Virus record (IMG/VR): IMGVR_UViG_3300042314_001187
Coordinates: 62,001 to 126,000 of that record
From: an uncultured virus (IMG/VR IMGVR_UViG_3300042314_001187)
Taxonomy: Duplodnaviria > Heunggongvirae > Uroviricota > Caudoviricetes
Strand: one strand, 5' to 3'
DNA length: 64,000 nucleotides
Shown: piece after piece, positions 15,137 to 50,893 of the stretch
How the letters are laid out: every line of letters begins with the position of its first letter
How positions within the stretch are numbered: the first letter of the stretch is position 1
Made by a program: the position numbers and the translations under genes
Notes under the pieces: generated by a model
The model's database searches: none
What the model was told of the DNA's origin: nothing
The model's input: the letters and a program-made list of their open reading frames with translations, nothing else

Positions 15137-15158
15137 TATTTATATAGAAAACACTATC

Positions 15159-20598: not shown

Positions 20599-20634
20599 TT
20601 GTTCTATTTTTTTATATAAATATTATTTTAATTT

Positions 20635-21276
20635 TTAAAATGTTAAATATTGATTTTCACCAACCTCAAAATAAGTGTCAGGGTCTATTAAAACCGGATT
20701 ATCAAATACTTGTTGAGTTGGTGTTGATGAAGGTGTTGGTGTTGGTGTAGGTGTTCTTGTTGGTGTTGTTGTTGGTGTTACACTAATTGTTGGTGTTGGT
20801 GTTGTTTGAGGACCACAACTAGGACAAGGTGTTGTTGTTGTTGTTGTAACATAAGGACCATTAACACAACAAGGGAATTCAGACACATAACAACTTTCGT
20901 ATGTTAAATCGTTAGCAATAAATGATTCCTGAACGTAAACATTTAGTTTTTCACGTATTGGTAATATTAAAACACCCTCATCACTTCTTAATAGAAATTG
21001 ACCTTCATATTTACCAACACGGTTAGTGTCAGTTGAAGTTAACTGATAGTATATATAATATTCAGGTTCCGCATTAGGGTCTATAAATGTTTTCTCAACA
21101 AATCCTCCTGGTTTAGAACTTATTTTAGGTATTCCCGTATCAACATCCACCATAGAAAAAAAGATTGCCGATAATTCTATTGTTTTCATAAAATTATCAA
21201 AATCACTTCTTCCGTTATTAACGACTTGTAACTTTAATAAAGGTAATGTTGCATTTTTTTTTATAAAAAAATCCAT
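20635..21276 (-). CDS. BppU-N-like Ig-fold structural protein with a Cys/Thr-Pro tail
   Basis: FFIKKNATLP.L.L...YYQ....DT...GKYEGQF...P; then CC, TTTTTTPCPSC and TPT repeats. Confidence 0.55.
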   Translation of the reverse strand: MDFFIKKNATLPLLKLQVVNNGRSDFDNFMKTIELSAIFFSMVDVDTGIPKISSKPGGFVEKTFIDPNAEPEYYIYYQLTSTDTNRVGKYEGQFLLRSDEGVLILPIREKLNVYVQESFIANDLTYESCYVSEFPCCVNGPYVTTTTTTPCPSCGPQTTPTPTISVTPTTTPTRTPTPTPTPSSTPTQQVFDNPVLIDPDTYFEVGENQYLTF

Positions 21277-21316
21277 CTACTATTTTTAATTATAAATAGT
21301 TTGATATTAAAAAAAC

Positions 21317-21340
21317 AAAAGAGGTATTACTACCTCTTTT
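21317..21340 (-). terminator. Intrinsic terminator ending the glycosyltransferase operon
   Basis: AAAAGAGGTA-TTAC-TACCTCTTTT plus an A-run at the 21339 stop. Confidence 0.75.
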
Positions 21341-23054
21341 AACTTTCTTTTCTTAAATCTCTACTGTAATGGTCGAATCTGTTATGTTCGGTTGGTGTTA
21401 ATAACAACAAACCAAAATTTAAATTACCTTTCTTTAGCTCCTGATACATAAAACTCATCCAAGTTTGTTCATATGGGTGAGCCCAAGTTGTATTTAAAAA
21501 CATTTTTTTACTTCCTGATTTTGAGACTAATTGAGGCCAATTACAATAATAAATGTCACCTGTAACATATGGTACACCATCTAATGATTTAACATTTTCA
21601 TACCTCACTTTAGGAGCGTTAGGGTCAGTACCTTGTTCTGGTAACTTAGGGTATTCAGGCCAATACTCATCTCTAACAACTTGAGGTACATTATACCAAG
21701 ACCATTGAACTGAATTATCTCCAAAAAACTCACTGAAATTTAATTTTAAAAAATCAAAATTTTCGTTCTTAGATATTTTAATTGATTTCTCATATAGGTT
21801 ATCAACCATACGATTAAACCCGTTTCTACACACTTCACCTTTTTTAGGGTAGAAGAACATATCATCTTCAAAAAAGAACATATATTCTAAATCAGATTTT
21901 TCAAAATGTTCGGCAATCCATTGTCTACCACCACAGATTCCTAAATTATCTTTTTTAATGTGTTCAAAACCATATTTAGAACACAACTCACTATAAATAG
22001 GTGTTGTTGTTAAATCAGTTGAGTTATCTAATAATATTTTTCTTGGTTTGTCAATAAAATCTTTATCATACTCTAACATAGAATCAATTAATGTTTGTAA
22101 TTGATTTGGACTATTAAATCCGATAACGTATAAACCAACCTTATCATTAACTACAGTTTGATATGTAATTGGTGATATTGAAGGTGTTACACTATTTGAT
22201 AAGTTAGAAATTACTTGAACTGTTTGTTTTAATTCTAAATTATCATTCTTTAGATTTTCAAAAAACGTACCTATTAAACCATTTTTTTCAATTTCAAAAA
22301 AGCTTGTTAATTCAGGGTGTTTATACAATAGAATTGAAAATAAACTTTCTTCAGTACCCATCAAATCATTATTTAATGTTTCATTTAATAATGAATAATA
22401 AACACCATTGATATTTGATATTGTGTCTTTATGACCACCGAAAAAACCACCTCTACCAACTATCTCAACTTTGTTCCCTGCGTATTTGTTAATTTCAGAA
22501 TAATTAAATCCGTGAATTTCTGTTTCAGCGTCATACGGAAACGCAACAAATGTGAATTTTTTTAAATACTTAGGTAATTTTTCTAATACTTTATCGTGAG
22601 TAAAATATCCAGGATGAACTGTATTAGTGATACCGGCATCTAACCAAAATAAATAATCAGAATTAAATTTATCCATAATTCTGGCGTCATTAAGTAAAAA
22701 CATTTTACTCATCACCAATGGATTATATAACTCTAATTTGGATTGTGTAGAATCTTTTAACCAACTTACTTGATTAGACCACTCAGGGTTATTTCTTATT
22801 TTTTGTATTTTATCGTAATAATCATTGTTTTTAAACCAATCTGTGTTACGTAAAATAAATTGAGTGTTACTATTTTCTCTGTTTTTATTGACAAACTGTT
22901 GAAGGTTCTCATCACCAAAAATGATTAAGTTAACATCAATCTTTAATAAATCAGATAGTTTATCTAAATAATGTTTATAGTTACGAGACCAATCATTATT
23001 TAAATGTTCTCTACCAATATCCCATAAACCTGTAACGATTGTTAGTTTTTCCAT
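21339..23054 (-). CDS. HtrL/WlaTC-family glycosyltransferase fused to a GT-A domain
   Basis: TIVTGLWDIGR, YN..VMSKMF, FWLDAG, GGFFGG, MGTEE; second domain LLDNS, NLGICGGRQ, FFEDD. Confidence 0.75.
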   Translation of the reverse strand: MEKLTIVTGLWDIGREHLNNDWSRNYKHYLDKLSDLLKIDVNLIIFGDENLQQFVNKNRENSNTQFILRNTDWFKNNDYYDKIQKIRNNPEWSNQVSWLKDSTQSKLELYNPLVMSKMFLLNDARIMDKFNSDYLFWLDAGITNTVHPGYFTHDKVLEKLPKYLKKFTFVAFPYDAETEIHGFNYSEINKYAGNKVEIVGRGGFFGGHKDTISNINGVYYSLLNETLNNDLMGTEESLFSILLYKHPELTSFFEIEKNGLIGTFFENLKNDNLELKQTVQVISNLSNSVTPSISPITYQTVVNDKVGLYVIGFNSPNQLQTLIDSMLEYDKDFIDKPRKILLDNSTDLTTTPIYSELCSKYGFEHIKKDNLGICGGRQWIAEHFEKSDLEYMFFFEDDMFFYPKKGEVCRNGFNRMVDNLYEKSIKISKNENFDFLKLNFSEFFGDNSVQWSWYNVPQVVRDEYWPEYPKLPEQGTDPNAPKVRYENVKSLDGVPYVTGDIYYCNWPQLVSKSGSKKMFLNTTWAHPYEQTWMSFMYQELKKGNLNFGLLLLTPTEHNRFDHYSRDLRKES

Positions 23055-23055
23055 A

Positions 23056-23940
23056 TTAATTTAATTCTTCTAAAATTTTATAAAAACTTTTATTAATTTT
23101 TAAGTGTTCATCCATCACAAGACCGGCAATTCTTTCATCTTCATGCCACCAAGTGTCAAACTCATAACTTAAAAATAAGTCAGGATGATTTCTAAACATT
23201 AATGTCATAATATCTTCTTCGTGATATAGGTAATTATCCGATTCGGTTACCTCATTAACATACTTTTCAAATAATTCTAACACATTAACCCATAACTCTT
23301 TTTTACCACCAAAAAAACCACCAATTACGTGTCTACTTCTATCATAACCATTAATAAAATGTTTTGGGTTAACAGTACCCGACCAATAATTCCTGTCGTT
23401 TTCTTTACTAACAATAGTGAATTTATCTTCACTTTTAGATATTAAATTACTTAAAAAGTTATTATTAAACAAATCACTTGAATAATATTGACTATTATGA
23501 ATTCCTGTTTTTGATAAATGTTTATTAGGTATTAATCCACAATGAGATAAACCGGCATCAAACCAAAAATAATGGTCATATGACATGTCCTCGTTTTTAA
23601 ACCATATAAATTTCATATATTGGATTTCGATACATCTATCACTACCATTTTTATCACACGCATCATAGTTTTTGTATTTTTTAAATAATTCTAAAAAATA
23701 ATGATTTTCTAAATCGTATGTTACTAATTTTAATTTATCCCTATCTACGTTGTTTTCAACATAGAAAAAAGTTTCTAATCCTTCAATTTCTCGTTCCGAC
23801 GTGTAACAAATGAAATCGGCATCAGACATTTTTAATAATGATAATAAACTCCATCTATAATGGCCACCTCTACTTGGTCTACCACCAAATTTAGTTCTAA
23901 ATAAATCACTATAAATTGATGTTATAATTTTAACTGACAT
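23056..23940 (-). CDS. HtrL/WlaTC-family glycosyltransferase
   Basis: YFWFDAG, IGGFFGG, HEEDIM; paralogous to the N-domain of 21339..23054. Confidence 0.7.
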   Translation of the reverse strand: MSVKIITSIYSDLFRTKFGGRPSRGGHYRWSLLSLLKMSDADFICYTSEREIEGLETFFYVENNVDRDKLKLVTYDLENHYFLELFKKYKNYDACDKNGSDRCIEIQYMKFIWFKNEDMSYDHYFWFDAGLSHCGLIPNKHLSKTGIHNSQYYSSDLFNNNFLSNLISKSEDKFTIVSKENDRNYWSGTVNPKHFINGYDRSRHVIGGFFGGKKELWVNVLELFEKYVNEVTESDNYLYHEEDIMTLMFRNHPDLFLSYEFDTWWHEDERIAGLVMDEHLKINKSFYKILEELN

Positions 23941-24664
23941 AATTAAATTCTTTATGTATATTATTCTTTTTTATTTGTTGATTAGATTCGTAATTTAAAA
24001 ATTCTGAATCTATTTTATATGGGGAATATAAGTTCCAATTGTATGTTTGTAGATAAAAATTACTATAATTACCTTGGGTAACATCTGAGAAATCACTTTT
24101 TTGAGGGGCTATTGGTAATATTGGGCAATAACTTTGTTTGATTGGTAATACTTTAAGATAAATATACTCATCAATTGGGTAATAACCATGTAAATTTTCA
24201 GTTATAATTCCCTTAACATTCTCATATATTGATTTATGATATACAATCATATTTGTCGCATAAACACCCCTATGTATTTCTTCTTTTGGTGGATAATTAG
24301 TAATATCTATTAACATTTTATCTTTCACACTAATTTCAACAGGTCGATTATGTGTTGGGGATAAATTTAGAATCCCAAATTCGGTATTTTCTAAAACAAC
24401 ATTTAATTGTTTTATAAATGATTTAGCGTTAGGTAAAAATGAGCAATCATCTTCAATTACCATAACGTATTCATAATCTCTTTCAATCGCTAAATCAATA
24501 ATGGCAACATGAGATAATGTACATCCTACATGACACCCTGTGTCAATCGCTTTAAATAATTCATAGTCCCACCCAATGTACGACATTTCCTGTTTAATAT
24601 GTTCTAATCTATCGGTTCTTTTTTCTAAGTTTAGGACAAATTTTGGTATTTCATTTAAGTTCAT
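23930..24664 (-). CDS. GT25-like glycosyltransferase (beta-galactosyltransferase family)
   Basis: VLNLEKRTDR, F.AID, GCTLSH, VIEDD, PID. Confidence 0.85.
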   Translation of the reverse strand: MNLNEIPKFVLNLEKRTDRLEHIKQEMSYIGWDYELFKAIDTGCHVGCTLSHVAIIDLAIERDYEYVMVIEDDCSFLPNAKSFIKQLNVVLENTEFGILNLSPTHNRPVEISVKDKMLIDITNYPPKEEIHRGVYATNMIVYHKSIYENVKGIITENLHGYYPIDEYIYLKVLPIKQSYCPILPIAPQKSDFSDVTQGNYSNFYLQTYNWNLYSPYKIDSEFLNYESNQQIKKNNIHKEFNYVS

Positions 24665-24677
24665 ATTATGTGTGTTT

Positions 24678-25457
24678 TTATATTATTAACCAATTATCAG
24701 GATAAAGGTCGTCTGTTATGTATGAACTATAAGACGGACCAAACCATTTACGGGGGGAGATAACGATATTTTCTTTTTTATTTAACCAAGCACCCCACCA
24801 ACTAAAACTACTATTAGCAATTACATTGTTATCACAAAATGACATTAAGTATAATTCTTCATAATCTTCTAAACCTTCAATATAAATTTTATTTTTAATG
24901 AAGTCAAAGTTGGTTTTACAAAATTCAATATCATCTGAAAATATAAGATATGTCGAATCCTCACCAATAATATTATAAGATTCTTCATAAAAATCAAAAG
25001 ATAAAACAGGGTGGTAATTATTTAAATGAAGATAATCACCTCTTCGAATATGAACTGAACAAGTTTTAGTTTTTAAAATATCATTATATTTAATTAACAA
25101 TTTTTCTTTAATTTCGTTATTACACTCGAAAATCTCTAATATTTTTTCTCGGTTTTTCTTAAAATATTTATCACTTTGGAAATATCCTGATAATTTAATG
25201 TTTCTATCAAAATTAGGTAATTCACAATAATGAAAATGTGGAACATTATATACATCATAATGTATTTTGTTATATGATAATTTTATTCTTTGGAAGATAT
25301 TGTTAACATATTTGGATATCGGGTGATGATTATTATAAAGTTCCGTAATATCAACAATAAAATCAGAATTTTCATCTAATGATTTTGAATATCCTGTTGC
25401 TATTTGAAACATTGTGTTACCTAGACCTCCAAATATTTTTGATGCTATAACATTCAC
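24678..25457 (-). CDS. GT11 alpha-1,2-fucosyltransferase-like protein
   Basis: GGLGNTMFQ, GYFQS.KYF, SVHIRRGDY, FSDD, IANSSFSWWGAWL. Confidence 0.92.
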   Translation of the reverse strand: MNVIASKIFGGLGNTMFQIATGYSKSLDENSDFIVDITELYNNHHPISKYVNNIFQRIKLSYNKIHYDVYNVPHFHYCELPNFDRNIKLSGYFQSDKYFKKNREKILEIFECNNEIKEKLLIKYNDILKTKTCSVHIRRGDYLHLNNYHPVLSFDFYEESYNIIGEDSTYLIFSDDIEFCKTNFDFIKNKIYIEGLEDYEELYLMSFCDNNVIANSSFSWWGAWLNKKENIVISPRKWFGPSYSSYITDDLYPDNWLII

Positions 25458-25471
25458 TTTATTTAATATTT

Positions 25472-26719
25472 TTATAAACTACCTGTTAATCTATCACCCC
25501 ATCCTTTAGATGTCGAGTACGGCCAAACAACCCAATACTTTGGTTTATGTGTTGTTTGAAATTCTCTCCATACTTTACAATATCCGTCAGGGTCATTTTT
25601 CATACGATTAATTTCGTTAATATCAGCATCTTGTCTATGAATTGTTTCATCATTTTCATCGTGGAAAGCAACTACCCAAAATTCATAATCTGTTTCAGGT
25701 ACTGAGTCATAACCAACATCAATACAATGTTTAAATATTGTAGCAAAACTATCTTCCCATTCCTCTTCGGTTTCAAATATAAATGGATTTGGTGGGTAGT
25801 TTTTATCTAACGTGTATTGTTGAACCGCACGTCTTGAAAATCTTAAACCTGAGTAAATTTCATATTCTTTAAGTGTTCTCTCAGTACCAAAACCGTAAAT
25901 ACCAAAATCAACATCAGATAATTCGCCATCCATACCAAACAATTTTCTGTTTTTACTATGTGACACATTATTTCTCATTACCCATTCTTTATCATCATCC
26001 CATTGTTTTGTTCTACCTTTTCTTGTGTATTCGTGCCAAATCAATGTTTTATGTGGGTGGAACAAATCATATCCGTGAGTATAAGCTCTAGCGGCGATTG
26101 AAATCTCTTCTCCGTGAAAATAAAATTCAGGGTCGTGTTGTACCTCAGTACTAAATTGACCTACAGTAAAGGCAAAGTGAGCTGAGTAAAATCTTGATGT
26201 TACAGGTTCTTTTAATTGTTCCCAACCTGGTATTGTTTCAGGTAAAAAGAATACCGCACCTTCGGGGATAAAACGGTCAAACACCATTCTCCAAGGTTCT
26301 TTAATTCTTTCAGCCGGGTCATTTTCAGGGTTAAATGATGATACATACCCCGTTAATAAAGGTTTTTTAAATCCTTTTTTCTGTAATTGTTTAACCATTT
26401 TAATAAATTCATCATCCCAATTTTTTTCAAATCTCATATGTGAATCTATCTGAAGTGTGTATTCCTCACCACCATATAATTGTTGTACTTGATTTCTAGC
26501 CCAACAAACACCTTTAGATTCGTTATATAAAACATCTAATATTCTAAATTTTTTATCTTTTCTAAATTCATTTAAGGTATCAAAACCATCTTCAGGGTGG
26601 TATTGTCTACAAACACCAATTCTAAGATTGTTAGGTTTTTTAGCATTCTCAATCATGCTTTTAATTGTGTTCTCCAATTCAGGGTCTCTATACGATGCAA
26701 TTTGCACAAAAATTTTCAT
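25472..26719 (-). CDS. GT60-like polypeptide alpha-N-acetylglucosaminyltransferase (Gnt1/Gnt2/OGNT family)
   Basis: IFVQIASYRDPE, GVCWAR, QIDSHMRF..NWD (DxH), YFHGEE, R.YTHGYD, H.Y, GTERTL..Y. Confidence 0.85.
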   Translation of the reverse strand: MKIFVQIASYRDPELENTIKSMIENAKKPNNLRIGVCRQYHPEDGFDTLNEFRKDKKFRILDVLYNESKGVCWARNQVQQLYGGEEYTLQIDSHMRFEKNWDDEFIKMVKQLQKKGFKKPLLTGYVSSFNPENDPAERIKEPWRMVFDRFIPEGAVFFLPETIPGWEQLKEPVTSRFYSAHFAFTVGQFSTEVQHDPEFYFHGEEISIAARAYTHGYDLFHPHKTLIWHEYTRKGRTKQWDDDKEWVMRNNVSHSKNRKLFGMDGELSDVDFGIYGFGTERTLKEYEIYSGLRFSRRAVQQYTLDKNYPPNPFIFETEEEWEDSFATIFKHCIDVGYDSVPETDYEFWVVAFHDENDETIHRQDADINEINRMKNDPDGYCKVWREFQTTHKPKYWVVWPYSTSKGWGDRLTGSL

Positions 26720-26771
26720 ACTTCATTTTTTTTTAAAAAATAAGTTTATTATTATATAAATAAAGATTTAA

Positions 26772-29700
26772 TTATAAACCAAATCTATCTTTTTGACTGT
26801 TAAAATTAGACAATACCTCATCGGAAGTTAACGCTCTATTATATATTCTAAATATTGACATATAACCTTGATAGTGGAAGTTAGAATTGTCACCTGTAAA
26901 ACAACCAATATCAAGTGGTAAGTTATAGTCTTGTATTAATAATGACAAGTTTAAATCATATCCTGAATCAACACCGTTAATATATGTGTAGAAACCTGTT
27001 GATGTCCATACACCAACAACTTGATTCCATTGGTTTAATGTTGTTGTTCCTGTACTTGTGTATGTGCCAAAACCAATTCCAGGTGCATTTGCTCCCAACA
27101 TCCATAAGTGACCTGTTGGGTCAATTCTCATTCTTATCCCATCATTACTACCTTTACTGAAAATTTCTCGATTGGCAAATAATGTTGGTTTCAACCAAAC
27201 CTCAACTGATACTGTGTTAGTAATTGCTGATAATGTTGATGTGTTAGGAATTGCGAATTTTTGATTACTACCATTAAAACTAAAATTACCCATTTTATCT
27301 GATGAAAAAACCGTTGCGGCATTTGTTGGTACTAATGATTGGTAAAATGTTGAGTTATTATTATTATCCGTAATATCGTTCCACGCAGTTCCCAAACTAG
27401 GCCAAGATAAATCAGAACCAGCATCTAACCATACTACAAGACCCGACACTTCAATTGGGTATTGAGGTTCTGAACTAATCATAATATATGGTCCACTTGA
27501 TAAATCAACCCATTGATTAAATGGTCCACTGATTGGTTGTGTAGGCGATGAACTCTCTAAATAAGAATATAAAGTACCTGAACCTAACACAGATGAATTA
27601 TACCAATTTGTTGTTGGGGTATCATACCAAACATAAGAAACTGTTGAAGTATAATTATTATTAGGTACTTCATAATATCTTCTACCATTCCAAACACCAG
27701 GTGATTCTGACATTGTGAAGATATTATCTTCGGTAAATGAATCATACCATGTCCATCTCCAAGGATTGGGAATTGTAAATGAGGGGCAAGGTTCAAATCC
27801 ACATTGATATTGAATAAATGGCGGTACAGGTAGTACTGTTACCTGACTTTTTAAATTAAAATATATCACACCATTAGCTAAGCTAGAAACTGAATATGTG
27901 TAATATTGGTTATCACATCTTGATGTATAATCACCTGATAAATATCCGACACCCCATTTGATTCCTGGAAAATAGACATCAATAGTAACACCTACACCAA
28001 CTGTTATAGAATTTAAGACTGTGTATGTCGTACCGGTAGCGTCAACTACTGAAGATAAAGTAACCCAAGGTCCGTTATTAACACGATATACCATACTTGT
28101 TGAGGTAACTATGTCACAATTGGCGTATAAAGGTAAATCAGTTTGTGCTAATATTTGAACTGTAATTGAGTTACTACAGTTTTGACAATCAACAAATGTT
28201 GTAGAACCACTTTGATATAACATTGGTCCTATGTAAGGGCTATTTATCGGGTTTTCTTGTATTGTTCTATAACATAAACCATTATTATCTTTAACAACCG
28301 TATTGCTTGGTAATGATTCAGGTAATACCATAACATAACTATTGGCTAAACAACTTATTTGTAATGGTTCGGTTATTTGTTCAATTATTGGTTCTGTAAC
28401 AATGTTTTCGGTCTCACTTAAACTTAATGGACCTGATGGTAATGTATAATTTCTATATTTAAAAAATTGAAATGCTGGTAAATATAATCCTATTTTGGTA
28501 AAAACGGAATTTCCTAATAATAATGTGCTTTTTTTACTACTTGATATATTCCTAATTTGGTTCATAACAAGTAATAATTGGTTTATACTTTGTGCAACAC
28601 AACTAGTATTGTTAATGTCAGTCCAAGTATTAGTTGTTGGATTCCAAAAATAAGTTGATTGTGTTGCTCCTGTTGTTACAATTAAACGACCATTAACACT
28701 AGGTGTTGGTGCTAATGATATGTTGTTAATTGGTGGTAAATAAGTAAAACCTGTTATTGGTCCAAATATTGTTGATAGTGATGTTGTACAAAAAGTTGGT
28801 GTGGTCCAAGATTCATAATAATTTAACGGTCTATACCACTTATAATTAACTAATCTAAGTTTAGTTCTGGAAAATTTGGAACTATTACTACCAAAAAATT
28901 GGTAATAAGAAGTTAATGAGTTAACATCTGTAGTCCAACCATTATATCTATAATCTAAATTTTGAAGATACTTTTGTAAAAATTCATTTCTGTTAATGGC
29001 GATGTTCTCATCAACGTCAGTCCAATTACTATCACAATCAAAACATTCAAGGTCTGAGGTAGTAATCTGAAAGAAACTGTCATCTAAAAAGTTTATATCA
29101 ATATTTGGTATACTGACCATATATGATGGGTCATTACAGGTTGAAGGTAAAACACAATTTGACTCAGGATAAACACGATTTAAACTACAACAAGGTACAA
29201 CACAATATAATGAAGAACAAGATATTTCATAAACATAACCACTCATAGAACATAGACGAGGTACTGGTGTTTTTGTTGGTGTTTGAGTTAGCGTTTTTGT
29301 TGGTGTTTGTGTTCTTGTAGGTGTTTTTGTTACACTTGGTGTATTTGTTGCGGTTTTTGTCACACTTGGCGTTTGTGTAGGTGTTTTTGTCACACTTGGG
29401 GTTTGTGTTCTTGTAGGTGTTTTTGTTGGGGTTTGTGTTCTTGTCTGTGTTGGTGTTTGTGTCGGACAAGGATTTGTTTGTAAACAGATACCGCATTGTT
29501 CACCAATTGGGTCATAAGCGGGTTGTGCACCATTCCATATTTTATTTGCAACACCTGTCGTTGATTCAAAAATTTGATAACATTGTCCTAATGTATCTTT
29601 AACTACATAAGTAAAATACGGGAATTGACTTGGTGTGTAAATTGTTGGTAGTAACATTTTGTGAAGAGTTACCAAATCACAACAACTAATAACGTTGAAT

Positions 29701-35700: not shown

Positions 35701-38159
35701 GTTGGTGTTTGTGTTTGGGTTTTAGTGTTAGTTGGGGTTTGGGTTGGTGTTTTAGTGTTAGTCGGTGTTTTAGTGTTAGTCGGTGTTTGTGTTCTTGTTG
35801 GTGTAGGTGTTGCGGTAGGACAAGGGTGAACTAAAATACAATTCACACATCCGTTACCCGTGTCAACGTATACGTCGTTATAATTACCATTCCAAAATAA
35901 GTCAGGTGTTTCACCACCAGGACCTGATGATATGATTTTATAACAAAATCCATTAGTATCTGAAACAACAAATGATGAAAAACTTGGGAAAAAAGTTGGT
36001 GTGAAACTAATTGGTAATTCCATAAACCCTGTTGTATTATTACAACAACTTTCAACGATAAATAAATCATATGGTGTTGTTGGTGTTGGTGTTTGAGTTG
36101 TGGTTGGGGTGTTTGTTGTGGTATTTGTTGGTGTTTGGGTTATAGTATTTGTTGGTGTTTGTGTTTGAGTTCTTGTGTTAGTTGGTGTTATGGTTACTGT
36201 GGGTGTTTGTGTTTTTGTTGGCGTATTTGTTGGGGTTTGTGTTCTTGTTTGTGTTCTTGTTATTGTATTTGTTGGGGTTTGAGTTCTTGTATTTGTTGGG
36301 GTTTGAGTTCTTGTCTGTGTTTGTGTTATTGTGTTTGTTGGTGTACTCGTATTAGTATTTGTTGGGGTTTGAGTTCTTGTCTGTGTTTGAGTGTTTGTTT
36401 GTGTGATAGTATTAGTTGGAGTTTGAGTAATAGTGTTAGTTGGGGTCTGTGTGTTAGTATTAGTTGGGGTCTGTGTGTTAGTCGGTGTCTGTGTGTTAGT
36501 ATTTGTTGGGGTTTGTGTGATAGTATTAGTAGGTGTTTGTGTTTGAGTTATAGTATTAGTTGGTGTTTGTGTCTTTGTTTGAGTTATAGTATTAGTTGGT
36601 GTTTGTGTTTTTGTAGGTGTTTGTGTACGAGTATTAGTTGGTGTTTGTGTACGAGTATTTGTTGGTGTTTGTGTTATTGTGTTTGTTGGTGTTTGTGTAC
36701 GAGTATTTGTTGGTGTTTGTGTTTGTGTTTTTGTTGGAGTTTGTGTTCTTGTATTAGTTGGTGTGTTGGTTGATGTTATTGTGTTTGTTGGTGTTTGTGT
36801 TGATGTTATTGTGTTTGTTGGTGTTTGTGTTCTTGTATTTGTTGGTGTTTGTGTTCTAGTATTTGTCGGGGTTTGTGTTTGAGTTATAGTATTAGTTGGC
36901 GTTTGTGTTTGTGTTCTTGTGTTAGTAGGTGTAATAGTATTTGTTGGTGTATTTGTGTTGGTTGGTGTGTTAGTAGGGGTTTCAGTATTAGTTGGAGTTT
37001 GTGTGTTAGTGTTAGTTGGAGTTTGTGTTTTGGTTTGTGTGTTAGTATTTGTTGGTGTTTGAGTTCTTGTGTTAGTCGGTGTTTGAGTTCTTGTGTTAGT
37101 CGGTGTTTGTGTTCTTGTTATTGTATTTGTTGGTGTAACAGTTTGTGTTATAGTTTGCGTTGGTGTTTCGGTAACAGTTGGGGTTACAGTTTGAGTTGGT
37201 GTTTCGGTAACAGTTGGCGTTTGAGTTGGTGTTTCGGTAACAGTTGGTGTTTGAGTTGGTGTTTCGGTAACAGTTGGTGTTTGAGTATTAGTGTTTGTAG
37301 GTGTTTGAGTTGGTGTTTCGGTATTTGTTGGAGTCACCGTCGGGGTGACAGTATTAGTGGTGGTAACTGTCGGGGTTGGGGTTGGGGTTAAACACAAATA
37401 AGATGGGTTTTCAATTTGACAATCATAACAATTAGTTGATTGACCCATAAATTGGTGTTGGAATATTATCGGTGAGGTTGTACTCCCAATATATTGAGCA
37501 CATCCTTCAAAGTTTGTATTTGAAATAAAATAAGTACCATTTAATGGTGAGTACGACCCAGGAATGTTTGATATTCTAAATTCATAAGATGAATCACAAC
37601 AACTTCTAAAGTTACCAATAACTGGTGGTAAAGTAGGTGTGACTGTTGGTGTTGGAGTTGACGTTGGGTATGGTTCAGGGCATCCGTTGACATCACAACC
37701 AAATTTAGGTGTTAAAATATACACAGGTGACTCAACGACAACATCATAACCACAATAATATAATGTGGTATCCCCGTCAATATCAGTAATTAATGTATTA
37801 CCATCACATAAAGTTATTTGAAATGGTAATGGGTCATTCGTTGGGTTAATAATTGTGTAACACTTACACTTATTAGGTGTTGGGGTTACTGTTGGTGTGA
37901 CCGTATTAGTAGGTGTTGGGGTTGGTGTTGGTTCACAAGATAAGTATAAGAATTCTTCACAACCTGTTGAATCGGTAACAATAACTAAGACTTCAGATAA
38001 CGGTTCACCTTCAATAGGTTCAAACGCGGGTATCTCCAATACAGGGGGGACCGAAACGACACCTGTTAAGACAACTTCACAGTATGTTCTAGTTAAATCA
38101 CAGATTGTTATGTCGTAAGGTGAATGACCTGTTAAACTTGTTATATATATTACACTCAT
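26772..38159 (-). CDS. Giant 3,795-aa mucin-like virion fibre protein: Thr/Pro tracts, Cys-rich modules, P-domain, C-terminal LamG/ConA-like domain
   Basis: Uninterrupted ORF with (T-x)n-TP repeats; SPYP..F.VSG..SH...D....L.SP.G..NGTW.LYIQD (P-domain); [33 protein letters not shown] (LamG). Confidence 0.85.
29265..37385 (-). repeat. Degenerate Thr/Pro coding repeat tracts ([22 protein letters not shown] units) interrupted by globular modules
   Basis: Plus strand almost all G/T (gttggtgtttgtgtt...); unit lengths are multiples of 6 nt. Confidence 0.95.
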
Positions 38160-38240
38160 TTAAAAAATAAATACCTAAAAAGTTGATATTTTAACATTTT
38201 TATTATTAAAATAATAAGTTTTTTTTAAAATTCTTAAATA

Positions 38241-39407
38241 TTAAAAATCAACACAATTAACACTGTTAAACATTTCACATATTGTGTTTTGTAAAAATGT
38301 TGTAATTTGATTATTAGGTATTATTGTCGACGGTAACGATGGGTTATATTTTGATAATAATATCATACCAATAAATCCATTTTCACCTATGACTGTTACG
38401 GTCGAATCTAATTGATTTGGATTTGATACGCTACCTCTATTATCGGAAACACTAGAAATGACTGTATTCCAATCGGTTGATTCAACAGTAAACCAAACAT
38501 ATTCGATTGATGGGCAAGGTGTTTGTCCTGATAAAAATATAGGGTTAACACCGATATTACTATAACGATACCAACTACCAGTGATGTTATTACAACTATA
38601 AGTTCCTTCGGTTAATGTAACCTCACGAGTAATAGTGTATGGTCCATAAGTTGGGTCATTACCTGAAATAATCGACGGTAAACCAATTTCCGATATTGAA
38701 TGTGGACTAATGGTTGTACCTAAATTAATTAATGTTATTTGAGGCCAAATATTTGGTTTACTAATTAAAAAATCAGTACCAACAGTTCCATAGACTTTTG
38801 GAAATGGGTTACTAAATAAAATGGTATTACCGACATTAAACATTGATAATCCTCCTGTACTAATAAACGTTGAGCTAGGTAAGTATGAATAAGTATAATA
38901 ATTAGTAATTGATGAATATGATAAAAATGAATGTGTATTCCACCAATTATTATATTTTTGAAAACAAGATAACGGTGTTAATGTTGGAGTTGGGGTTTTA
39001 GTTAATGTTGGAGTTGGGGTTTTAGTTAATGTTGGGGTTACTGTTGGAGTTACTGTTGATGTTGGTGTTGGAGAAATTAAACAAGGGTTGGGTGTTATAG
39101 TTGGAGTTGGAGTTTTAGTAGGGGTTTTAGTTACTGTAGGTGTAATTGTTTTAGTTGGCGTTTGTGTTGGTGTTGGTCTAACAACGTTCATAAAATTAGG
39201 ACATTTTGAATTATCAACTAATATTGTGTACGTTCCAAATACATCACGAGGGGGTATTAAAGTTGAGGGGTCAAACGTATATGGTAATATAATTTGACCG
39301 AATTCTTTATTTAAATTTATAGTGACATTATCATTGTCGGGTTTAAATAATATATTAGCTGACTCACCGTCATAATTAACACTTGATATTACTATTGTAT
39401 TACTCAT
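38241..39407 (-). CDS. Thr/Pro-repeat structural protein
   Basis: N-module shared with 39412..40800, a TPT tract, then a beta-rich C-domain. Confidence 0.65.
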   Translation of the reverse strand: MSNTIVISSVNYDGESANILFKPDNDNVTINLNKEFGQIILPYTFDPSTLIPPRDVFGTYTILVDNSKCPNFMNVVRPTPTQTPTKTITPTVTKTPTKTPTPTITPNPCLISPTPTSTVTPTVTPTLTKTPTPTLTKTPTPTLTPLSCFQKYNNWWNTHSFLSYSSITNYYTYSYLPSSTFISTGGLSMFNVGNTILFSNPFPKVYGTVGTDFLISKPNIWPQITLINLGTTISPHSISEIGLPSIISGNDPTYGPYTITREVTLTEGTYSCNNITGSWYRYSNIGVNPIFLSGQTPCPSIEYVWFTVESTDWNTVISSVSDNRGSVSNPNQLDSTVTVIGENGFIGMILLSKYNPSLPSTIIPNNQITTFLQNTICEMFNSVNCVDF

Positions 39408-39411
39408 CTAA

Positions 39412-40800
39412 TTAAAAATTATTTTCGATTGCTAAACAAACTTCACCATTCATTGATATTAATCTTGACATATCATTGAATGAGATAAATGCGTGTCCTT
39501 GTTTACCCCAAGTTTGTCCCCAGCTATTTTTTATTCTAAAAAGTTTTTTTTCTTTATCAACACCATTTATTAAATATGCGTGTCCTCCGACAATACCACC
39601 TGTCACTCTAATTAACCCGTTTGAGTTAGGGTAAAACATTCCTGAATACCAATAAGTACCAACAACTACAGGGCCTAATTCAAACACTGAATTAATTAAC
39701 GTGTTTAAGTCGTAACCCCAATAGTATGATTTAATTACGTTTTTAGATTGTAAATATTTTGCACCTGCTCTAACTGATGTACCTGCATAATTTTCTCCCG
39801 GCCATTCATCAATTTTTTGAGCTTCGTTATAGATTGTAACAGGTGAAATTATTGGTGGAGTACCTTCGTGACCTACAGGACCATCTTCAACCCAATGAGC
39901 CCAAGAATAACCAACACAATGAGGTAAATTACGTTGATTACCCCACCAACCATCTGAGTCCCAATACTTAAATTGATAAACAGGTGTTTTTGATGGTGTT
40001 GGCGTAACTAATACCGGTTTAGATTTTGTTGGTGTTCTTGTTGGTGTTCTTGTTGGTGTTGGTGTTGGTAATATTGGTCTACTTTTACTTGGTGTTGGTG
40101 TTATTTTATATTTATTAACAATAGGTCTAGCACGAACAATACTAAGTAGATAATCATAGTTATCCTTAATTAGGTAATTTTTATCTCTAATATCAGGGAT
40201 ATACATTCTACCTAATAGTGAAACATCCGGCTTAATTTCTAACGGTGGTTCTAATTCTTGTGTGTTATTAATTACATATGTAAAATCATTAATAGCACAA
40301 CTGTCTGTAGAACAATCAGGACAATCAGGATTGAACATTATAAATGGGTTCTTCAATAAACTAAAATTGTGTTTAACTTCAGGTGCGGATAGGGGTGATG
40401 TGTAAAATCTAAATTGAGATATTGCACCTTCAAAAGAACCTGCAAAATATTTGTTAATTAATATATTAGTATTTAAACCACTAAATGTGGTTGGACTTAA
40501 ATCCATATCTGAAAAATTCTCAGGGTCTTGAGTATACCTTTGAAATAAATCATATTCAACGGTTGTTGCCGTTATTGTTTGAGGTGAGGGTATAGGGTTA
40601 GATGATGAAATGGTAAAGTCACAAGTGAAATTATAAGCTGAAAAAAATAATTCATACTTACCAAAAAAATAATCAGTTGTATAATTGTAAGGAACAACTT
40701 GTATTCCAACATTTATTGTACCGCCTGTTTCTGGGTAAAATGTAATTTCGGCAGTTTCACCACTATAATTTCTAGTTCCTATAACTACTGTTGATGCCAT
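39412..40800 (-). CDS. Multidomain protein: N-module, LamG C-terminal fragment, TPT linker, papain-like (C1A) cysteine peptidase
   Basis: NQ....HCVGYSW (Gln/Cys), GGHAYLING (His), IKNSWG..WG..G (Asn). Confidence 0.8.
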   Translation of the reverse strand: MASTVVIGTRNYSGETAEITFYPETGGTINVGIQVVPYNYTTDYFFGKYELFFSAYNFTCDFTISSSNPIPSPQTITATTVEYDLFQRYTQDPENFSDMDLSPTTFSGLNTNILINKYFAGSFEGAISQFRFYTSPLSAPEVKHNFSLLKNPFIMFNPDCPDCSTDSCAINDFTYVINNTQELEPPLEIKPDVSLLGRMYIPDIRDKNYLIKDNYDYLLSIVRARPIVNKYKITPTPSKSRPILPTPTPTRTPTRTPTKSKPVLVTPTPSKTPVYQFKYWDSDGWWGNQRNLPHCVGYSWAHWVEDGPVGHEGTPPIISPVTIYNEAQKIDEWPGENYAGTSVRAGAKYLQSKNVIKSYYWGYDLNTLINSVFELGPVVVGTYWYSGMFYPNSNGLIRVTGGIVGGHAYLINGVDKEKKLFRIKNSWGQTWGKQGHAFISFNDMSRLISMNGEVCLAIENNF

Positions 40801-40822
40801 TACTTTTTAATTATAAATATGT

Positions 40823-43800
40823 TTATAAACCATAATTAGATTTACTACTATTATAGTTTTGGGTTACTTCAGATGAATTGATTCCCCTGTTATAAACATT
40901 AAATCCTCCAAATCTAAACGTTGATGCGGGTCCTTGACCTATACCGCCAGGTGTTGTAACCAAGTTAGTTGACGTTGGATATCCTAAGTAATAATACATA
41001 TTTAAACCATTACTGTTATATGGTGTTTCTCTATTCACTGTGTAAGTACCAACTGATGAACCGTTAACGTACGCTGTTAATGTTGTTCCATTATATGTCC
41101 AACCGACATAGTACCAATTATTTAATGGGTATATACTAGGTGAAGTAATCAGTGCGGTTCCGTTTATAACATATGGCCAAATTGCAAATAAGAAATTACC
41201 ACTTGAATTTCGTTGTATTTGAGCATCAAACCAAGATGAATCAGGTGTTGTAGTTCCTTGTTCACATAATAAAATACCATTAGTTATTGGGTAAACCCAC
41301 ATAAATAATGACATTACTTCACCTGTGTTAACAGGTGATAGATACGCATTAAGACCTCCGGTTCTTATATATTCGGTTGTTGAACCTTCAATAGTTAAAT
41401 AATTAGGACTTCCACTACTATAAGTAATAGTTCCTGTTATAACACCATTAGAGTTACCTTCCAAATCAGTTATAACAGACCCCGACCCATTATAAGATAA
41501 CGTATTTTGAATATCCCAATCTAAAATTAATCCACTTTGTGTTATTCCTAATGTTGAACTTGGTGTTATTGTATTAGTTGGTGTTGGGGTATTTGTTGAG
41601 GTTATTGTATTAGTCGGAGTTGGTGTTGGTGTTTCGGTATTTGTTGGTGTAATTGTGTTAGTTGGTGTAATTGTGTTAGTTGGTGTAATTGTGTTAGTTG
41701 GTGTAATTGTGTTAGTTGGTGTTGGTGTTGGTGTTTCAGTATTTGTTGGGGTTATTGTATTTGTAGGTGTTATTGTATTTGTAGGTGTTGGTGTTGGTGT
41801 TTCAGTATTTGTTGGGGTGATGGTTTGAGTATTAGTATTAGTTGGTGTTATTGTCTGAGTCGGTGTTTTAGTTTGAGTAACTGTATTTGTTGGGGTTTGA
41901 GTATTAGTTGGTGTTTGAGTATTTGTTGGGGTTTGAGTATTAGTTGGTGTTGGTGTTGGTGTTGCAAATATTGGTGGGTTAGCGTTAATGTTACAACATT
42001 TAGATAGTGTTGGGTTTGTTGCATCAACAGAGGTAAATGTTGTTATACCATTCAAGTTATTATAATCATCGGGTAAACTAACAAGTGTTGTTCCCGTAGT
42101 TTGACCTGAGTTAATTGTTACACCCGTGATTATTTCAATTGGGTTACCTGTTTTAACATCTAATATGTGTTTAAAATCAACAGTTAAATCTTCGTTAAGT
42201 ATTGATGATGATGTTAACGTGTAAGTAATTTTTATTGAACCCGGTAAAATTTCAGAAGTCAAAACAACATTAATTAACACACCACCAACAATGTCACAAA
42301 CAGGTACTTGTTTTGGGATTAGATGTTCTCTTAAACCTTGAGTTCCCCCACCCCAAGAAATATTAAATGGTACACCAACTTGTTTTTCTTTTTCAGTTGG
42401 TAAAGCTCTTGGTATTAATTCTTCAATATTCTCAAACGTTTGAAACAATTTACCATTTATGTAAATTTTTAAACGACCATTTCGATATTTTTTATTAATT
42501 AACCATTTTTCATTTAACTTAACTAAATCAATTGTTTTAGCTGGTGTAGCACCTTCGTGGTTATAAAATGGGGTTATTAATATCTGTGAATTATTCGCTA
42601 ACGATTCTAAATATAATTTTTCGGTAATATCGTCTAATCCACCTCTATATTTTAAATCACAATCATCCAACCAAGTATAACGTTCCCATACAGCATTAAA
42701 TTGAAACCAATGTTCTTCTTCTAACCACGCGGGGTTTTCAATTTGACATCTAGGGTAAATTGGTAAAGTACAATGTTCGTCAACTGTGTATCCTGTGGTG
42801 TACGTAATCCCTGTTGTGGTACAAGACCCGCTAGTTTCACAATCACCGGTAATTCTTAATATTCTAACACAAATACTTGGATTTTTTGGGTCACCCGAAA
42901 GTTTAAATGATAACGCATTTGACATTGAGTCATCTAATGGGTTACTTTCACAAGTACTCTGTATTGATGAGGTTGTACCTGTTCCACAACTATGTGTTTT
43001 ACATTCCCATCCACAACTTTCATATTCTTCAGGTGGACAACCACATCCTGAACAATTACCACCATTAGTTTTTGTATCACAACCACATACATTACATCCG
43101 TAATTTTTATGTGAGTCGTGTTTACCATCATTTGACCTTGGAGGGTAAACATAAATACAGTCACTATTAGTTACACCTGTATTACAACAAGCACAAGTCT
43201 CAAGACTAACTAAAGGTTTTGTGATTCTAGTATAACCTGTTAATGAACTTGGTGAACCATCAGCGTGATGGTAATATTTGTTTTCGGCTCTTGCTCCAAA
43301 ATAGAAAAATGTGTCTTTGTTGTTTGGGTAAATTTCGTTTAATGTGGTTTCACCCGGACCAGGTGAGTATTCATCAACCAATCTTGGCTTCAATAGCATT
43401 TCAACTGACCATCCCTTATTCATTCTTTCAGGAAAAATATCATAATCGTACCCAAATAATTTATAGAAACCTTGATAAAAACCACCATATAATTCGTGAT
43501 ATCTACCAATATACGGACTGTTTTTACTTACAACTTCATATAAAATATTGTCTTCAAAACCTGAAAATCTAAAATTAGGTGTATTGGTATACCCTGTAAC
43601 TTGAAACATTTTGAATCGTCTATCAAAAATTAAACGATTGAACTTATCTGAATCATTAACTAAACCATTTGTAAATGTTATTGTTTGTGCGGTCATACCG
43701 GTAACTAAACCGTTATCAGTTCCTGTTAAACCAATATCACAAGATGTTTTTGCTGTGAAACAACTTAAATCCTCTGAATCATTTATTTTAAAATTTTGAG

Positions 43801-44044
43801 ATACAAAAACGTTATTAAAATTATAGTTTTTATATGATAATACTAAATTTTGGGCGGTTAATGTATTATTGATATCAAAATATATTGGTAATCTATTACC
43901 GTATGTTTGAGCGATTAAATAAGGTGAATACACAACTTCTTGATTGAAGTCTCTCTCATCTGATGATAAAGACATATCGTATGAGTCCAAACTAAGTTTT
44001 AAACCCACACTTGAATTTTGATATTGATAAATATTTTGACTCAC
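40823..44044 (-). CDS. Large Cys-rich structural protein with LamG/ConA-like domains and a TPT tract (GTG start)
   Basis: GWSVEMLLKP..GRLKIYING..ISWGGG (incomplete LamG), Cys clusters, TPT tract, complete C-terminal LamG (GLILDWD..WYYVGWTY..YVNG..VYNR..EV..NY). Confidence 0.75.
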   Translation of the reverse strand: MSQNIYQYQNSSVGLKLSLDSYDMSLSSDERDFNQEVVYSPYLIAQTYGNRLPIYFDINNTLTAQNLVLSYKNYNFNNVFVSQNFKINDSEDLSCFTAKTSCDIGLTGTDNGLVTGMTAQTITFTNGLVNDSDKFNRLIFDRRFKMFQVTGYTNTPNFRFSGFEDNILYEVVSKNSPYIGRYHELYGGFYQGFYKLFGYDYDIFPERMNKGWSVEMLLKPRLVDEYSPGPGETTLNEIYPNNKDTFFYFGARAENKYYHHADGSPSSLTGYTRITKPLVSLETCACCNTGVTNSDCIYVYPPRSNDGKHDSHKNYGCNVCGCDTKTNGGNCSGCGCPPEEYESCGWECKTHSCGTGTTSSIQSTCESNPLDDSMSNALSFKLSGDPKNPSICVRILRITGDCETSGSCTTTGITYTTGYTVDEHCTLPIYPRCQIENPAWLEEEHWFQFNAVWERYTWLDDCDLKYRGGLDDITEKLYLESLANNSQILITPFYNHEGATPAKTIDLVKLNEKWLINKKYRNGRLKIYINGKLFQTFENIEELIPRALPTEKEKQVGVPFNISWGGGTQGLREHLIPKQVPVCDIVGGVLINVVLTSEILPGSIKITYTLTSSSILNEDLTVDFKHILDVKTGNPIEIITGVTINSGQTTGTTLVSLPDDYNNLNGITTFTSVDATNPTLSKCCNINANPPIFATPTPTPTNTQTPTNTQTPTNTQTPTNTVTQTKTPTQTITPTNTNTQTITPTNTETPTPTPTNTITPTNTITPTNTETPTPTPTNTITPTNTITPTNTITPTNTITPTNTETPTPTPTNTITSTNTPTPTNTITPSSTLGITQSGLILDWDIQNTLSYNGSGSVITDLEGNSNGVITGTITYSSGSPNYLTIEGSTTEYIRTGGLNAYLSPVNTGEVMSLFMWVYPITNGILLCEQGTTTPDSSWFDAQIQRNSSGNFLFAIWPYVINGTALITSPSIYPLNNWYYVGWTYNGTTLTAYVNGSSVGTYTVNRETPYNSNGLNMYYYLGYPTSTNLVTTPGGIGQGPASTFRFGGFNVYNRGINSSEVTQNYNSSKSNYGL

Positions 44045-44057: not shown

Positions 44058-44084
44058 ATAAATACTCTATATCGTGGTATTTAT
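44058..44084. promoter_or_regulatory. Back-to-back TATTTAT candidate late promoters at the strand switch
   Basis: ATAAATA at 44058-44064 (minus-strand gene) and TATTTAT at 44078-44084 (plus-strand gene). Confidence 0.6.
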
Positions 44085-48069: not shown

Positions 48070-48071
48070 AA

Positions 48072-50887: not shown

Positions 50888-50893
50888 AATATA

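Follow-up and report, generated by a model that had tools for sequence, protein, structure and literature searches.

Mucin-type glycosylation of threonine-rich domains is known to be started in Dictyostelium and Trypanosoma cruzi by polypeptide alpha-N-acetylglucosamine (GlcNAc) transferases of glycosyltransferase (GT) family 60 (PMC8724618, PMC6939170). The same family holds Gnt1, a cytoplasmic enzyme which transfers GlcNAc to hydroxyproline of the Skp1 protein, and its product is reported in the same two papers to be extended with galactose (Gal) and fucose (Fuc) to Fuc-alpha1,2-Gal-beta1,3-GlcNAc. In T. cruzi, the protein gp72 was described as having a heavily glycosylated Thr/Pro domain (PMC3630849). 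Here, a stretch of 64,000 nucleotides (the window; bases 62001-126000 of the 131,650-bp record IMGVR_UViG_3300042314_001187 of an uncultured virus) was analyzed, in which a gene for a GT60-like enzyme headed an operon of sugar-transferring enzymes placed among the genes of (Thr-x)n repeat proteins. It was concluded that this operon rather probably O-glycosylates the (Thr-x)n fibre proteins of the phage itself.

The serine-rich-repeat adhesins of Gram-positive cocci, very long proteins with Ser/Thr-rich repeats, are likewise O-glycosylated step by step in the cytoplasm with no lipid carrier, by GtfA/GtfB and accessory GTs encoded beside them. The predicted phage system resembles that of the adhesins in all these points and differs in that the adhesin initiator belongs to GT4, the adhesin is exported by accessory Sec, and that system is non-viral. 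Some viruses are known to glycosylate virion proteins with enzymes of their own: chloroviruses are cited for this in PMC5852040, and mycobacteriophage-encoded GTs have been described as modifying the virion proteins of their own phages (PMC10568470, PMC12582341 and PMC11256854, citing Freeman et al. 2023, Cell Host Microbe). One preprint lists GT60 with the auxiliary genes of viruses and does not interpret it. A GT60-initiated system, giant (Thr-x)n phage proteins, and GT60/HtrL bookends around a hypervariable cassette were not found in the literature searched, which included few subscription journals. In the mycobacteriophage case, siphovirus subunits of the capsid and the tail tube are reportedly modified by enzymes outside GT60; a giant mucin-like protein, an HtrL fusion and a hypervariable cassette between fixed bookends are, by the same account, no part of that system.

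The gene at 25472-26719 (minus strand) encoded a protein of 415 amino acids (aa), which was proposed as the initiator. It scored 237.1 bits with the Pfam profile PF11397 'GlcNAc' (GT60), for which the cut-off is 21 (E-value 5.3e-70), and positions 2-43 and 94-350 of the 352 in the profile were covered, which upheld the GT60 membership supposed in the earlier note. The residues D92, H94, E204, E205 and H229 were invariant in an alignment with 40 relatives (36-52% identity); both the metal-binding DxH motif with its downstream His and the acidic GEE-type motif were conserved. The AlphaFold model of the protein had a predicted local distance difference test (pLDDT) value of 95.6 and a predicted template modelling (TM) score of 0.90. 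Its best Foldseek matches were polypeptide N-acetylgalactosamine (GalNAc) transferases, with E-values from 5.8e-11 onward over residues 1-328. The GT-A fold was nearest to the polypeptide GalNAc-transferases (ppGalNAc-Ts) of GT27, the sequence identity to which was 11-15%, and an extra C-terminal beta domain of ~90 aa (residues ~329-415) lay beyond the matched region. The protein was taken as a retaining GT-A transferase built like the mucin-type polypeptide GalNAc-transferases. A sequence search of PDB gave chance-level matches to T7 RNA polymerase only (E >= 0.07), and no NCBIfam match was obtained for this protein or for the GT11, GT25 and 294-aa proteins of the same operon.

The phage enzyme thus belongs to the same PF11397 family as the protist enzymes of Dictyostelium and T. 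cruzi and as Gnt1; its predicted acceptors are likewise Thr-rich and mucin-like, and it has no ricin-type lectin domain. As with Gnt1, its sequence suggests a soluble, cytoplasmic enzyme. It differs from the protist enzymes in being phage-encoded, in the additional C-terminal beta domain, in having a fusion of HtrL and GT-A domains as a partner, and in the lack of a prolyl hydroxylase in the block. To our knowledge, a partner of that build occurs in no protist pathway. The differences from the animal mucin-type GT27 system, beyond the low identity, were the missing lectin domain, the missing secretory pathway and the low content of Ser (only 1%) in the presumed acceptor tracts. Further, homologues of the GT60-like protein formed ~966 prokaryotic or viral clusters at 50% identity (E <= 1e-30). 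It was also observed that giant proteins of 1,600-2,500 aa (P0125, P0127, P0128, P0132 and P0137) contained up to four GT60-like stretches each, as multi-GT60 fusions.

The operon was a part of ten minus-strand genes running from 44044 down to 20635, for which all gene calls and family names were upheld. The previously described succession of four tract proteins, GT60, GT11, GT25, HtrL and HtrL/GT-A enzymes, and a fifth tract protein, all in one orientation, was borne out in order and in families by the open reading frames (ORFs), Pfam and hhalign. The first tract protein (1073 aa, 40823-44044) had a tract at residues 689-831, followed by a C-terminal Laminin_G_3/ConA-like domain (Laminin_G_3 matches of 2.7e-9 and 7.3e-8) and preceded by 688 residues of unknown fold. 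The second (462 aa, 39412-40800) had a Thr-Pro (TP) linker at residues 241-260 and a C-terminal papain-like (C1) peptidase (Peptidase_C1 6.1e-6 in Pfam; phrog_16701 peptidase 1.3e-49). The third (388 aa, 38241-39407) contained a (Thr-x)n tract at residues 76-147 and a C-terminal domain without a family, and its N-terminal module was common to the 462-aa protein (E 3e-5 and 1e-4). The fourth was a mucin-like giant of 3795 aa (26772-38159) with 31 (Thr-x)n tracts, and the fifth (213 aa, 20635-21276), encoded after the enzymes, consisted of a globular N-terminus and a C-terminal Thr/Pro tail at residues 139-189. The tracts comprised 143, 20, 72, 1780 and 51 residues in the 1073-, 462-, 388-, 3795- and 213-aa proteins, respectively.

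The tracts, noted earlier as Thr/Pro repeats, were better described as a strict (Thr-x)n alternation, since 825 of the 871 tract threonines in the giant protein were followed by x-Thr. Thr accounted for 49%, Pro for 16% and Ser for 1% of the tract residues in this protein, and the x position was occupied by P (243), Q (173), N (168), R (87), I (59), V (33) and K (29). The longest perfect T-x run reached 413 aa in the giant protein, which contained 1111 Thr in total, and 134 aa in the 1073-aa protein. Such strict alternation differs from the irregular sequence of the animal PTS (Pro/Thr/Ser) domains. The reported PTVT- and TETP-like units were present (PTVT 10, TETP 6 and TPTNTRTQ 39 times). 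PTVT is reportedly an acceptor of the Dictyostelium GT60 enzyme. At the DNA level, Tandem Repeats Finder returned 80 rows with periods of 18-132 nt, and the tracts resulted in a GC skew of up to +0.63.

The 3795-aa protein was mucin-like also in its build, as the tracts were split by a five-Cys module of ~80 aa present in four copies (pairwise E 1e-7 to 6e-14). It additionally contained a module of ~95 aa in three copies, a P-domain-like module of the proprotein-convertase type (P_proprotein 2.5e-5) and a Laminin_G_3 domain at the C-terminus (4.9e-19). Structural virion proteins, as annotated in phage S-PM2 and in phages of Flavobacterium, shared ~30% identity with this laminin G-like (LamG) part. 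Four more tract proteins (375, 879, 810 and 122 aa) were encoded on the contig outside the window, hence the presumed substrates were not confined to the described block. The 375-aa protein (contig 7640-8767, plus strand) had four tracts. The 879-aa protein (contig 13257-15896, plus strand) had 687 tract residues with a perfect (Thr-x)n run of 583 aa, and over its first 70 aa it shared 35% identity with the beginning of the 3795-aa protein (E 1e-5).

The remaining enzymes of the operon, all on the minus strand, followed the GT60 gene. A 259-aa GT11 protein of the alpha-1,2-fucosyltransferase family (24678-25457; PF01531 1.1e-22, phrog_2644 2.7e-55) and a 244-aa GT25 protein of the beta-galactosyltransferase / lipooligosaccharide (LOS) family (23930-24664; PF01755 1.4e-15) formed the variable cassette. 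Next came a single-domain HtrL-like protein of 294 aa (p294, 23056-23940), which had no Pfam match and was recognized by hhalign as a paralog of the N-terminal domain of the following protein (probability 96.2%, E 2e-9, columns 12-264 of the HtrL domain of the 571-aa family). The last enzyme was the 571-aa fusion (21339-23054), the second bookend, with an HtrL_YibB Pfam match at residues 4-251 (1.3e-15); its NCBIfam HtrL match was far under the equivalog cut-off.

The model of the fusion (pLDDT 87.3) showed two domains, HtrL-like (residues 1-280) and GT-A (residues 305-571), with a disordered linker between them. E396-D397-D398 was invariant in the second domain, and only D139 was invariant in the HtrL domain, where no canonical DxD was seen. 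The best Foldseek matches were tandem two-GT-A enzymes (E 5e-11 to 2e-7), namely E. coli K4 chondroitin polymerase (K4CP, 5e-11), Mimivirus R699, LARGE1, LH3, COLGALT1 and Pasteurella heparosan synthase 2 (PmHS2). The TM-scores of 0.22-0.32 were low because the domain arrangement differed, so the match speaks to the architecture of the fusion and not to its activity. The 571-aa protein has two confident domains and the EDD in the second one; it differs from the tandem two-GT-A polymerases by the HtrL domain lacking a canonical DxD, and a polymerase activity is speculative. The Atlas clusters of the fusion (3,145 and 124 members) were 99% viral.

No transmembrane-like segments were found in the five enzymes (highest 19-residue Kyte-Doolittle mean <= 1.33). 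Families of flippase (Wzx), polymerase (Wzy), oligosaccharyltransferase or polyprenyl-phosphate GT were absent both from the 47 window proteins scanned and from 111 representatives of the cassette proteins of related phages. Both results fit the cytoplasmic, lipid-carrier-free pathway that had been suggested from the sequence, and the marks of en-bloc O-glycosylation through a lipid carrier, of the PglL or Bacteroidota type, were not seen in either protein set. A Skp1-type pathway consists of prolyl 4-hydroxylase (P4H), Gnt1 and PgtA; no P4H or 2-oxoglutarate (2OG) oxygenase family was found by Pfam among 12 block proteins. A PhyH-family oxygenase was encoded at 52118-52984, ~25 kb from the block.

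Relatives of the GT60-like enzyme were encoded on 401 viral contigs, and at 90% identity they made up more than 7,451 protein clusters, hence the group was large. The synteny was compared in the best 80 viral loci (74-100% identity), which represented 64 distinct architectures. The typical layout began with one or more tract proteins and GT60, continued with 1-13 cassette genes and the HtrL fusion, and ended with a small tract protein and PolB. The same-strand gene directly upstream of GT60 carried a tract in 53 of the 64 architectures; in the 11 exceptions the tract was one gene further upstream (7) or three genes upstream (1), the contig ended (2), or no tract was in view (1). The background rate of tracts was 194 of 1,044 proteins of at least 100 aa in these loci. 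The HtrL fusion was present in 61 of 64 architectures and the next gene was tract-bearing in 39 of 56. Hence, the co-occurrence of GT60 and tract genes expected for related phages was found, and it extended to the cultured phage XacN1 and to bacterial loci. When loci were anchored on PolB instead, those with at least 4 kb upstream had both HtrL and tract genes in 41 cases, HtrL only in 2, tract only in 1 and neither in 5, with 30 further loci having less than 4 kb. Because the tract and HtrL genes adjoin each other, this comparison gave no independent information; with that confounding, no relatives clearly keeping the tract genes without the GT module were seen among the PolB-anchored loci.

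The cassette itself was hypervariable, as its 265 proteins fell into 113 clusters at 50% identity. Pfam was run on 111 of the 113 representatives, the other two being the GT11 and GT25 of the window. A family was assigned to 48 of the 111, of which 25 were GTs (GT25 8, GT10 6, GT34/DUF273 5, GT2 3, PLOD-GT 2 and GT31 1) and 23 were sugar-modifying enzymes. The latter included methyltransferases of the FkbM type (7) and of other sugar types (7), GNAT (2) and DegT (2) proteins, and one each of a hexapeptide acetyltransferase, a carbamoyltransferase, an epimerase, a HAD + nucleotidyltransferase protein and a DUF3431 protein. Of the 80 viral loci, only the one of the window type (L019) had a GT11. 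GT60 and the HtrL fusion stayed fixed as bookends while the genes between them changed fast, which suggests that the glycan is begun and completed by a conserved chemistry and diversifies in between.

Among the 50,697 records of a phage collection, GT60 was present only in four phages, namely the Xanthomonas jumbo phage XacN1, Xoo-sp13 and the Stenotrophomonas phages CM1 and RAS14 (44-48% identity), and a full-length HtrL fusion, 40-42% identical and located 5-6 kb from GT60, was found in the same four records only. The XacN1 operon (ORF334-ORF330) encoded GT60, a carbamoyltransferase, ORF332 (p294-like by eye), ORF331 and the HtrL fusion. Seven (PT)4 sites were counted in XacN1, compared with none for the reversed control pattern, and they were carried by ORF232, ORF236, ORF237, the 3313-aa ORF325 and ORF384. 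The cluster is similar to that of the window in its carbamoyltransferase, of the kind found in the cassettes of relatives, in the p294-like ORF and in the PT tracts of giant proteins. It differs in the high-GC host, in short plain (PT)n tracts and in the tract genes not being directly upstream of GT60. At least two Schiff-stained glycoprotein bands were described for purified XacN1 virions, and the authors tentatively ascribed these glycoproteins to the phage GTs ORF328/ORF334 (PMC5852040, including the legend of Suppl. Fig. S4).

A profile scan of cellular genomes, one per species, gave at least 584 matches, of which 78 loci (L098-L175) were kept. The closest of these came from Saprospiraceae, Lewinellaceae and other metagenome-assembled genomes of Bacteroidota with ~34% GC; in L100, L101, L098, L103 and L110, GT60 was 60-70% identical and the adjacent HtrL fusion 45-59% identical to the phage proteins. 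This sequence similarity hints at these bacteria as the host lineage of the phage, and Saprospiraceae/Lewinellaceae are also a possible source or sink of gene transfer. One of the closest loci adjoined genes for a protein sorted by the type IX secretion system, a sulfotransferase and OmpA/Omp85 proteins. GT60 and HtrL genes stood within two genes of each other in 19 of the 59 cellular loci having a BLAST-labelled GT60, in Bacteroidota, Gemmatimonadota, Acidobacteriota, and Alpha-, Beta- and Gammaproteobacteria. Proteins with tracts of at least 30 aa numbered 9/89, 6/85, 5/86, 1/76, 1/64 and 0/126 with growing gene distance from GT60, that is 15/174 within two genes against 7/352 further away (odds ratio 4.6, p 7e-4). 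The ORF calls were naive and many loci were mutually related and not independent, and the enrichment was taken as evidence of modest strength; the gene surroundings of the loci were held to be the more informative result.

Type VI secretion system (T6SS) clusters with TssF, TssG, TssA, a fimbrial-like gene, DotU and TagF made up 20 of the 78 loci and belonged to Burkholderiales (Paraburkholderia, Cupriavidus, Achromobacter, Ralstonia, Trinickia and Paraherbaspirillum) and to one Neisseriaceae genome. Nine of the 13 VgrGs in view carried TP tracts, mostly as C-terminal (Thr-Pro)n tails of 45-145 residues. Extracellular contractile injection system (eCIS) clusters accounted for 4 of the 78 loci, all in Sphingomonadaceae; in these, the gene of a 1,200-aa tract protein immediately preceded two GT60 genes. 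Examples of T6SS/eCIS-type bacterial loci were L134 (10267-13131, minus strand), L145, L142, L154, L149 and L112. Other companions of GT60 were a LamG tract protein, Rv2525c-like tract proteins and, on a probable phage contig, tract proteins with a crAss muzzle domain. Considering the phage, T6SS and eCIS contexts together, GT60 accompanied Thr-Pro tracts on three kinds of contractile-tail machine, and the VgrG and eCIS contexts suggest glycosylated parts of injection devices. No description of this parallel was found in the literature searched, most subscription journals being outside its coverage.

The earlier note had also linked the block and the GT60 gene by a shared upstream TATTTAT motif. 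The motif was indeed present at 44058-44064, 40813-40819, 38167-38173, 21292-21298 and 20616-20622 (minus strand) and, at 26756-26762 (minus strand), 43 nt before the GT60 start; it was found to be genome-wide and not block-specific. The window contained 74 copies compared with 53.5 +/- 7.1 expected, and only 1 of 100 shuffles reached 74. A sense-strand copy was present within 80 nt upstream of 27 of the 102 contig ORFs, mostly 19-27 nt before the start codon, and the density was 38 copies in 5,789 intergenic bases versus 85 in 125,861 coding bases. This intergenic, near-start distribution makes the motif a plausible promoter element. The genes preceded by it included those of the tail sheath, the tail tube, and the 1073-, 462-, 3795-, 415- (GT60), 213- and 231-aa proteins; by the same definition it was absent before the 388-aa, GT11, GT25, 294-aa and 571-aa genes. 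As the motif also preceded the sheath and tube genes, TATTTAT was ruled out as a feature that sets the operon and the tract genes apart from other genes. As a promoter-like element, it plausibly places the GT operon in the same class as the structural genes. Separately, a (TATT)n-like microsatellite of seven overlapping TATTTAT copies was observed at 52089-52115 (minus strand), just upstream of the PhyH-like gene.

We proposed that the phage encodes a soluble, stepwise pathway of protein O-glycosylation together with its own substrates, and the computational checks suggested in the earlier note all spoke for it. Gene content, folds, conserved catalytic residues, synteny, the lack of membrane or lipid-carrier parts among the proteins scanned, and the recurrence beside Thr-Pro tracts in unrelated systems were observed; we infer which sugar is donated, which residue accepts it, what the glycan looks like, when it is made and that the tract proteins are in the virion. 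The GT60-like enzyme would transfer an N-acetylhexosamine (HexNAc) from a UDP-sugar to the tract threonines inside the infected cell, and by analogy with the protist GT60 enzymes this sugar may be GlcNAc. The variable cassette would then extend it. Going by the family names of GT25 and GT11, Gal followed by a Fuc cap is predicted, and the three enzymes could give a Fuc-Gal-HexNAc core as on Skp1. The conserved HtrL-like enzymes might, speculatively, add further sugars, and the two-GT-A-domain build of the fusion might even allow a repeating chain. Finally, the tract proteins, with their lectin-like LamG tips and shared N-terminal docking modules, would be mounted on the virion as extended, bottle-brush-like fibres. 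The virion location is the weakest link of the proposal; the LamG similarity, the shared N-terminal modules and the late-type promoter motif point to it weakly.

Several observations weigh against an O-glycosylation of own fibres, and some of them favour other roles of the operon. Many fibre proteins of phages and bacteria have Thr/Pro linkers, whether or not they are glycosylated. The synteny within the one viral clade was inherited, thus the viral loci were not independent, and with the contig covering ~45% of the genome further parts of a pathway may lie beyond it. GT11, GT25 and HtrL are families best known from lipopolysaccharide (LPS)/LOS loci, and the variable GT islands of phages were read as modifiers of the host surface, namely of outer polysaccharides, in a jumbo-phage review (PMC7824862). 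Only 13 of the 59 cellular GT60 loci had a tract protein within two genes, the other 46 having none, and a second, larger sugar-biosynthesis cluster was present in the window at 46852-61504. These last points would agree with an operon that remodels a glycan of the host, be it LPS/LOS, a capsule or an S-layer, perhaps to prevent superinfection, with the tracts being unglycosylated linkers. Such a role was considered quite unlikely, as the initiator had the family and fold of polypeptide transferases, the enzymes lacked membrane segments, no lipid-carrier GT, flippase, polymerase or ligase was found in the window or the 111 cassette representatives, and the pairing of tracts with GT60 recurred in T6SS, eCIS and other unrelated contexts. 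The GT60 enzyme could instead modify some other protein, either a host or phage regulator in the manner of Gnt1 and Skp1 or, as an effector, a protein of the target cell. The Gnt1 branch is reported to modify a single hydroxyproline of one cytoplasmic protein (PMC6939170), the bacterial genes lie in injection-system loci, and GT effectors are known, such as the glycosyltransferase domain of Afp18. Yet in T6SS loci GT60 stood among core structural genes (TssA, fimbrial-like, DotU) next to a VgrG with a (Thr-Pro)n tail, the phage enzyme headed an elongating and decorating operon that suits a dense glycan better than a single regulatory mark, and the block had no P4H-family gene; another substrate was thus judged unlikely. 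The acceptor could also be hydroxyproline rather than Thr: a PhyH-family oxygenase was encoded in the second sugar cluster, and a P4H-type gene (2OG-FeII_Oxy_3) was two genes from GT60 in one Lewinellaceae locus, although the block itself held no prolyl hydroxylase.

The tract proteins might also be glycosylated without being virion parts, for instance as a decoy or matrix that is released at lysis or displayed on the cell. Neither the 1073-aa nor the 213-aa protein had a tblastn match for its N-terminal part in the 50,697 phage records, and both parts thus resembled no known structural protein, which speaks against fibres as well. One tract protein has a papain-like peptidase, and the homologous C1 peptidase of XacN1 is not among the enzymes reported in virions (PMC5852040). 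The same paper names neither the stained XacN1 proteins nor the GT family or the acceptor, and a second GT, ORF328, is present in the phage. Against the decoy or matrix role, the tract genes shared TATTTAT with the sheath, tube and baseplate genes, the LamG tips resembled annotated virion structural proteins, and the XacN1 glycoproteins were detected in purified virions (PMC5852040). The N-terminal modules shared between tract proteins also count here, as modules of this sort would be expected in fibres that attach to one adaptor. Altogether, proteins that stay outside the virion were held to be decidedly improbable. Least credible of all was a glycosylation of phage DNA with hypermodified bases against restriction, in which the PolB adjacency would reflect the role. 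The module did abut PolB in nearly all relatives, the 571-aa protein had weak matches to a beta-glucosyl-HMC glucosyltransferase PHROG (6e-4) and a TET-associated GT family (E 0.14), and a jumbo-like phage with a thymidine substituent of ~1 kDa has been described (PMC9023294). Against this stood the polypeptide-transferase family of GT60 with its fold nearest to the ppGalNAc-Ts, and neither a base hydroxymethylase nor a related family turned up on the 131.6-kb contig, itself incomplete; the T6SS/eCIS contexts with TP tails would also be left unexplained.

The contig that carries the operon was estimated by CheckV to be ~45% complete, which places the genome near 290 kb. It encoded tail sheath, tail tube, baseplate hub and wedge proteins, PolB, a DnaB-like helicase, a primase, a UvsX-like recombinase, RNR, PhoH and dUTPase, and this content of tail and replication genes indicates a jumbo myovirus. 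The GC content ranged within 26-37% across the window, which had no tRNA genes. The phage collection held no near-identical record for the contig, and a megablast of the whole block against it gave no match. After the operon, a 231-aa protein (p231, 19903-20598, minus strand) followed the module, as in many loci of relatives; it had no family match and is possibly of the fibre type, as guessed from its N-terminal sequence. The tail sheath protein (1284 aa, 6046-9900, minus strand) matched the sheath family only in the last ~300 aa, with roughly 950 N-terminal residues having no family match. A 519-aa protein (13577-15136, plus strand) contained a complete Fe/Mn superoxide dismutase at residues 43-233 and was unusually long for a phage enzyme of this kind, with ~285 residues lacking a known family.

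The second sugar cluster (46852-61504, plus strand) had a PhoH gene in its middle. It encoded a GT (phrog_7162), the PhyH-family 2OG oxygenase, a hexapeptide acetyltransferase, a GT1-like protein, three GT2-type enzymes and two CmcI-like methyltransferases. A short DegT-like ORF was also present and overlapped with the ORF behind it, and the two may be a split aminotransferase. This cluster may make unusual sugars available for the same glycan or decorate them.

A wider reading was also formulated and is offered tentatively, being rather doubtful. GT60-initiated O-glycosylation of (Thr-x)n tracts may be a general, hitherto unrecognised modification of contractile-tail nanomachines, so that phage fibres, VgrG spikes with (Thr-Pro)n tails and eCIS components would all be prokaryotic or viral 'mucins'. 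The bookends and the cassette would then produce strain-specific coats, and the HtrL fusion might polymerise to give proteoglycan-like fibres.

Phages are commonly regarded as particles of bare protein. If the O-glycosylation of own (Thr-x)n fibres is true, very abundant environmental jumbo phages would build eukaryote-style mucins with strain-variable glycan coats, with no membrane or lipid carrier being required. As cultured relatives exist, the idea can be tested directly. With its compact set of soluble enzymes, the operon would also lend itself to the production of mucin-like glycoproteins in bacteria, and the link to T6SS VgrG and eCIS suggests that the same chemistry acts on bacterial injection devices. 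For the phages themselves, such coats would bear on protease resistance, on sticking to or avoiding surfaces and mucus, and on the diversification of the particle surface under selection.

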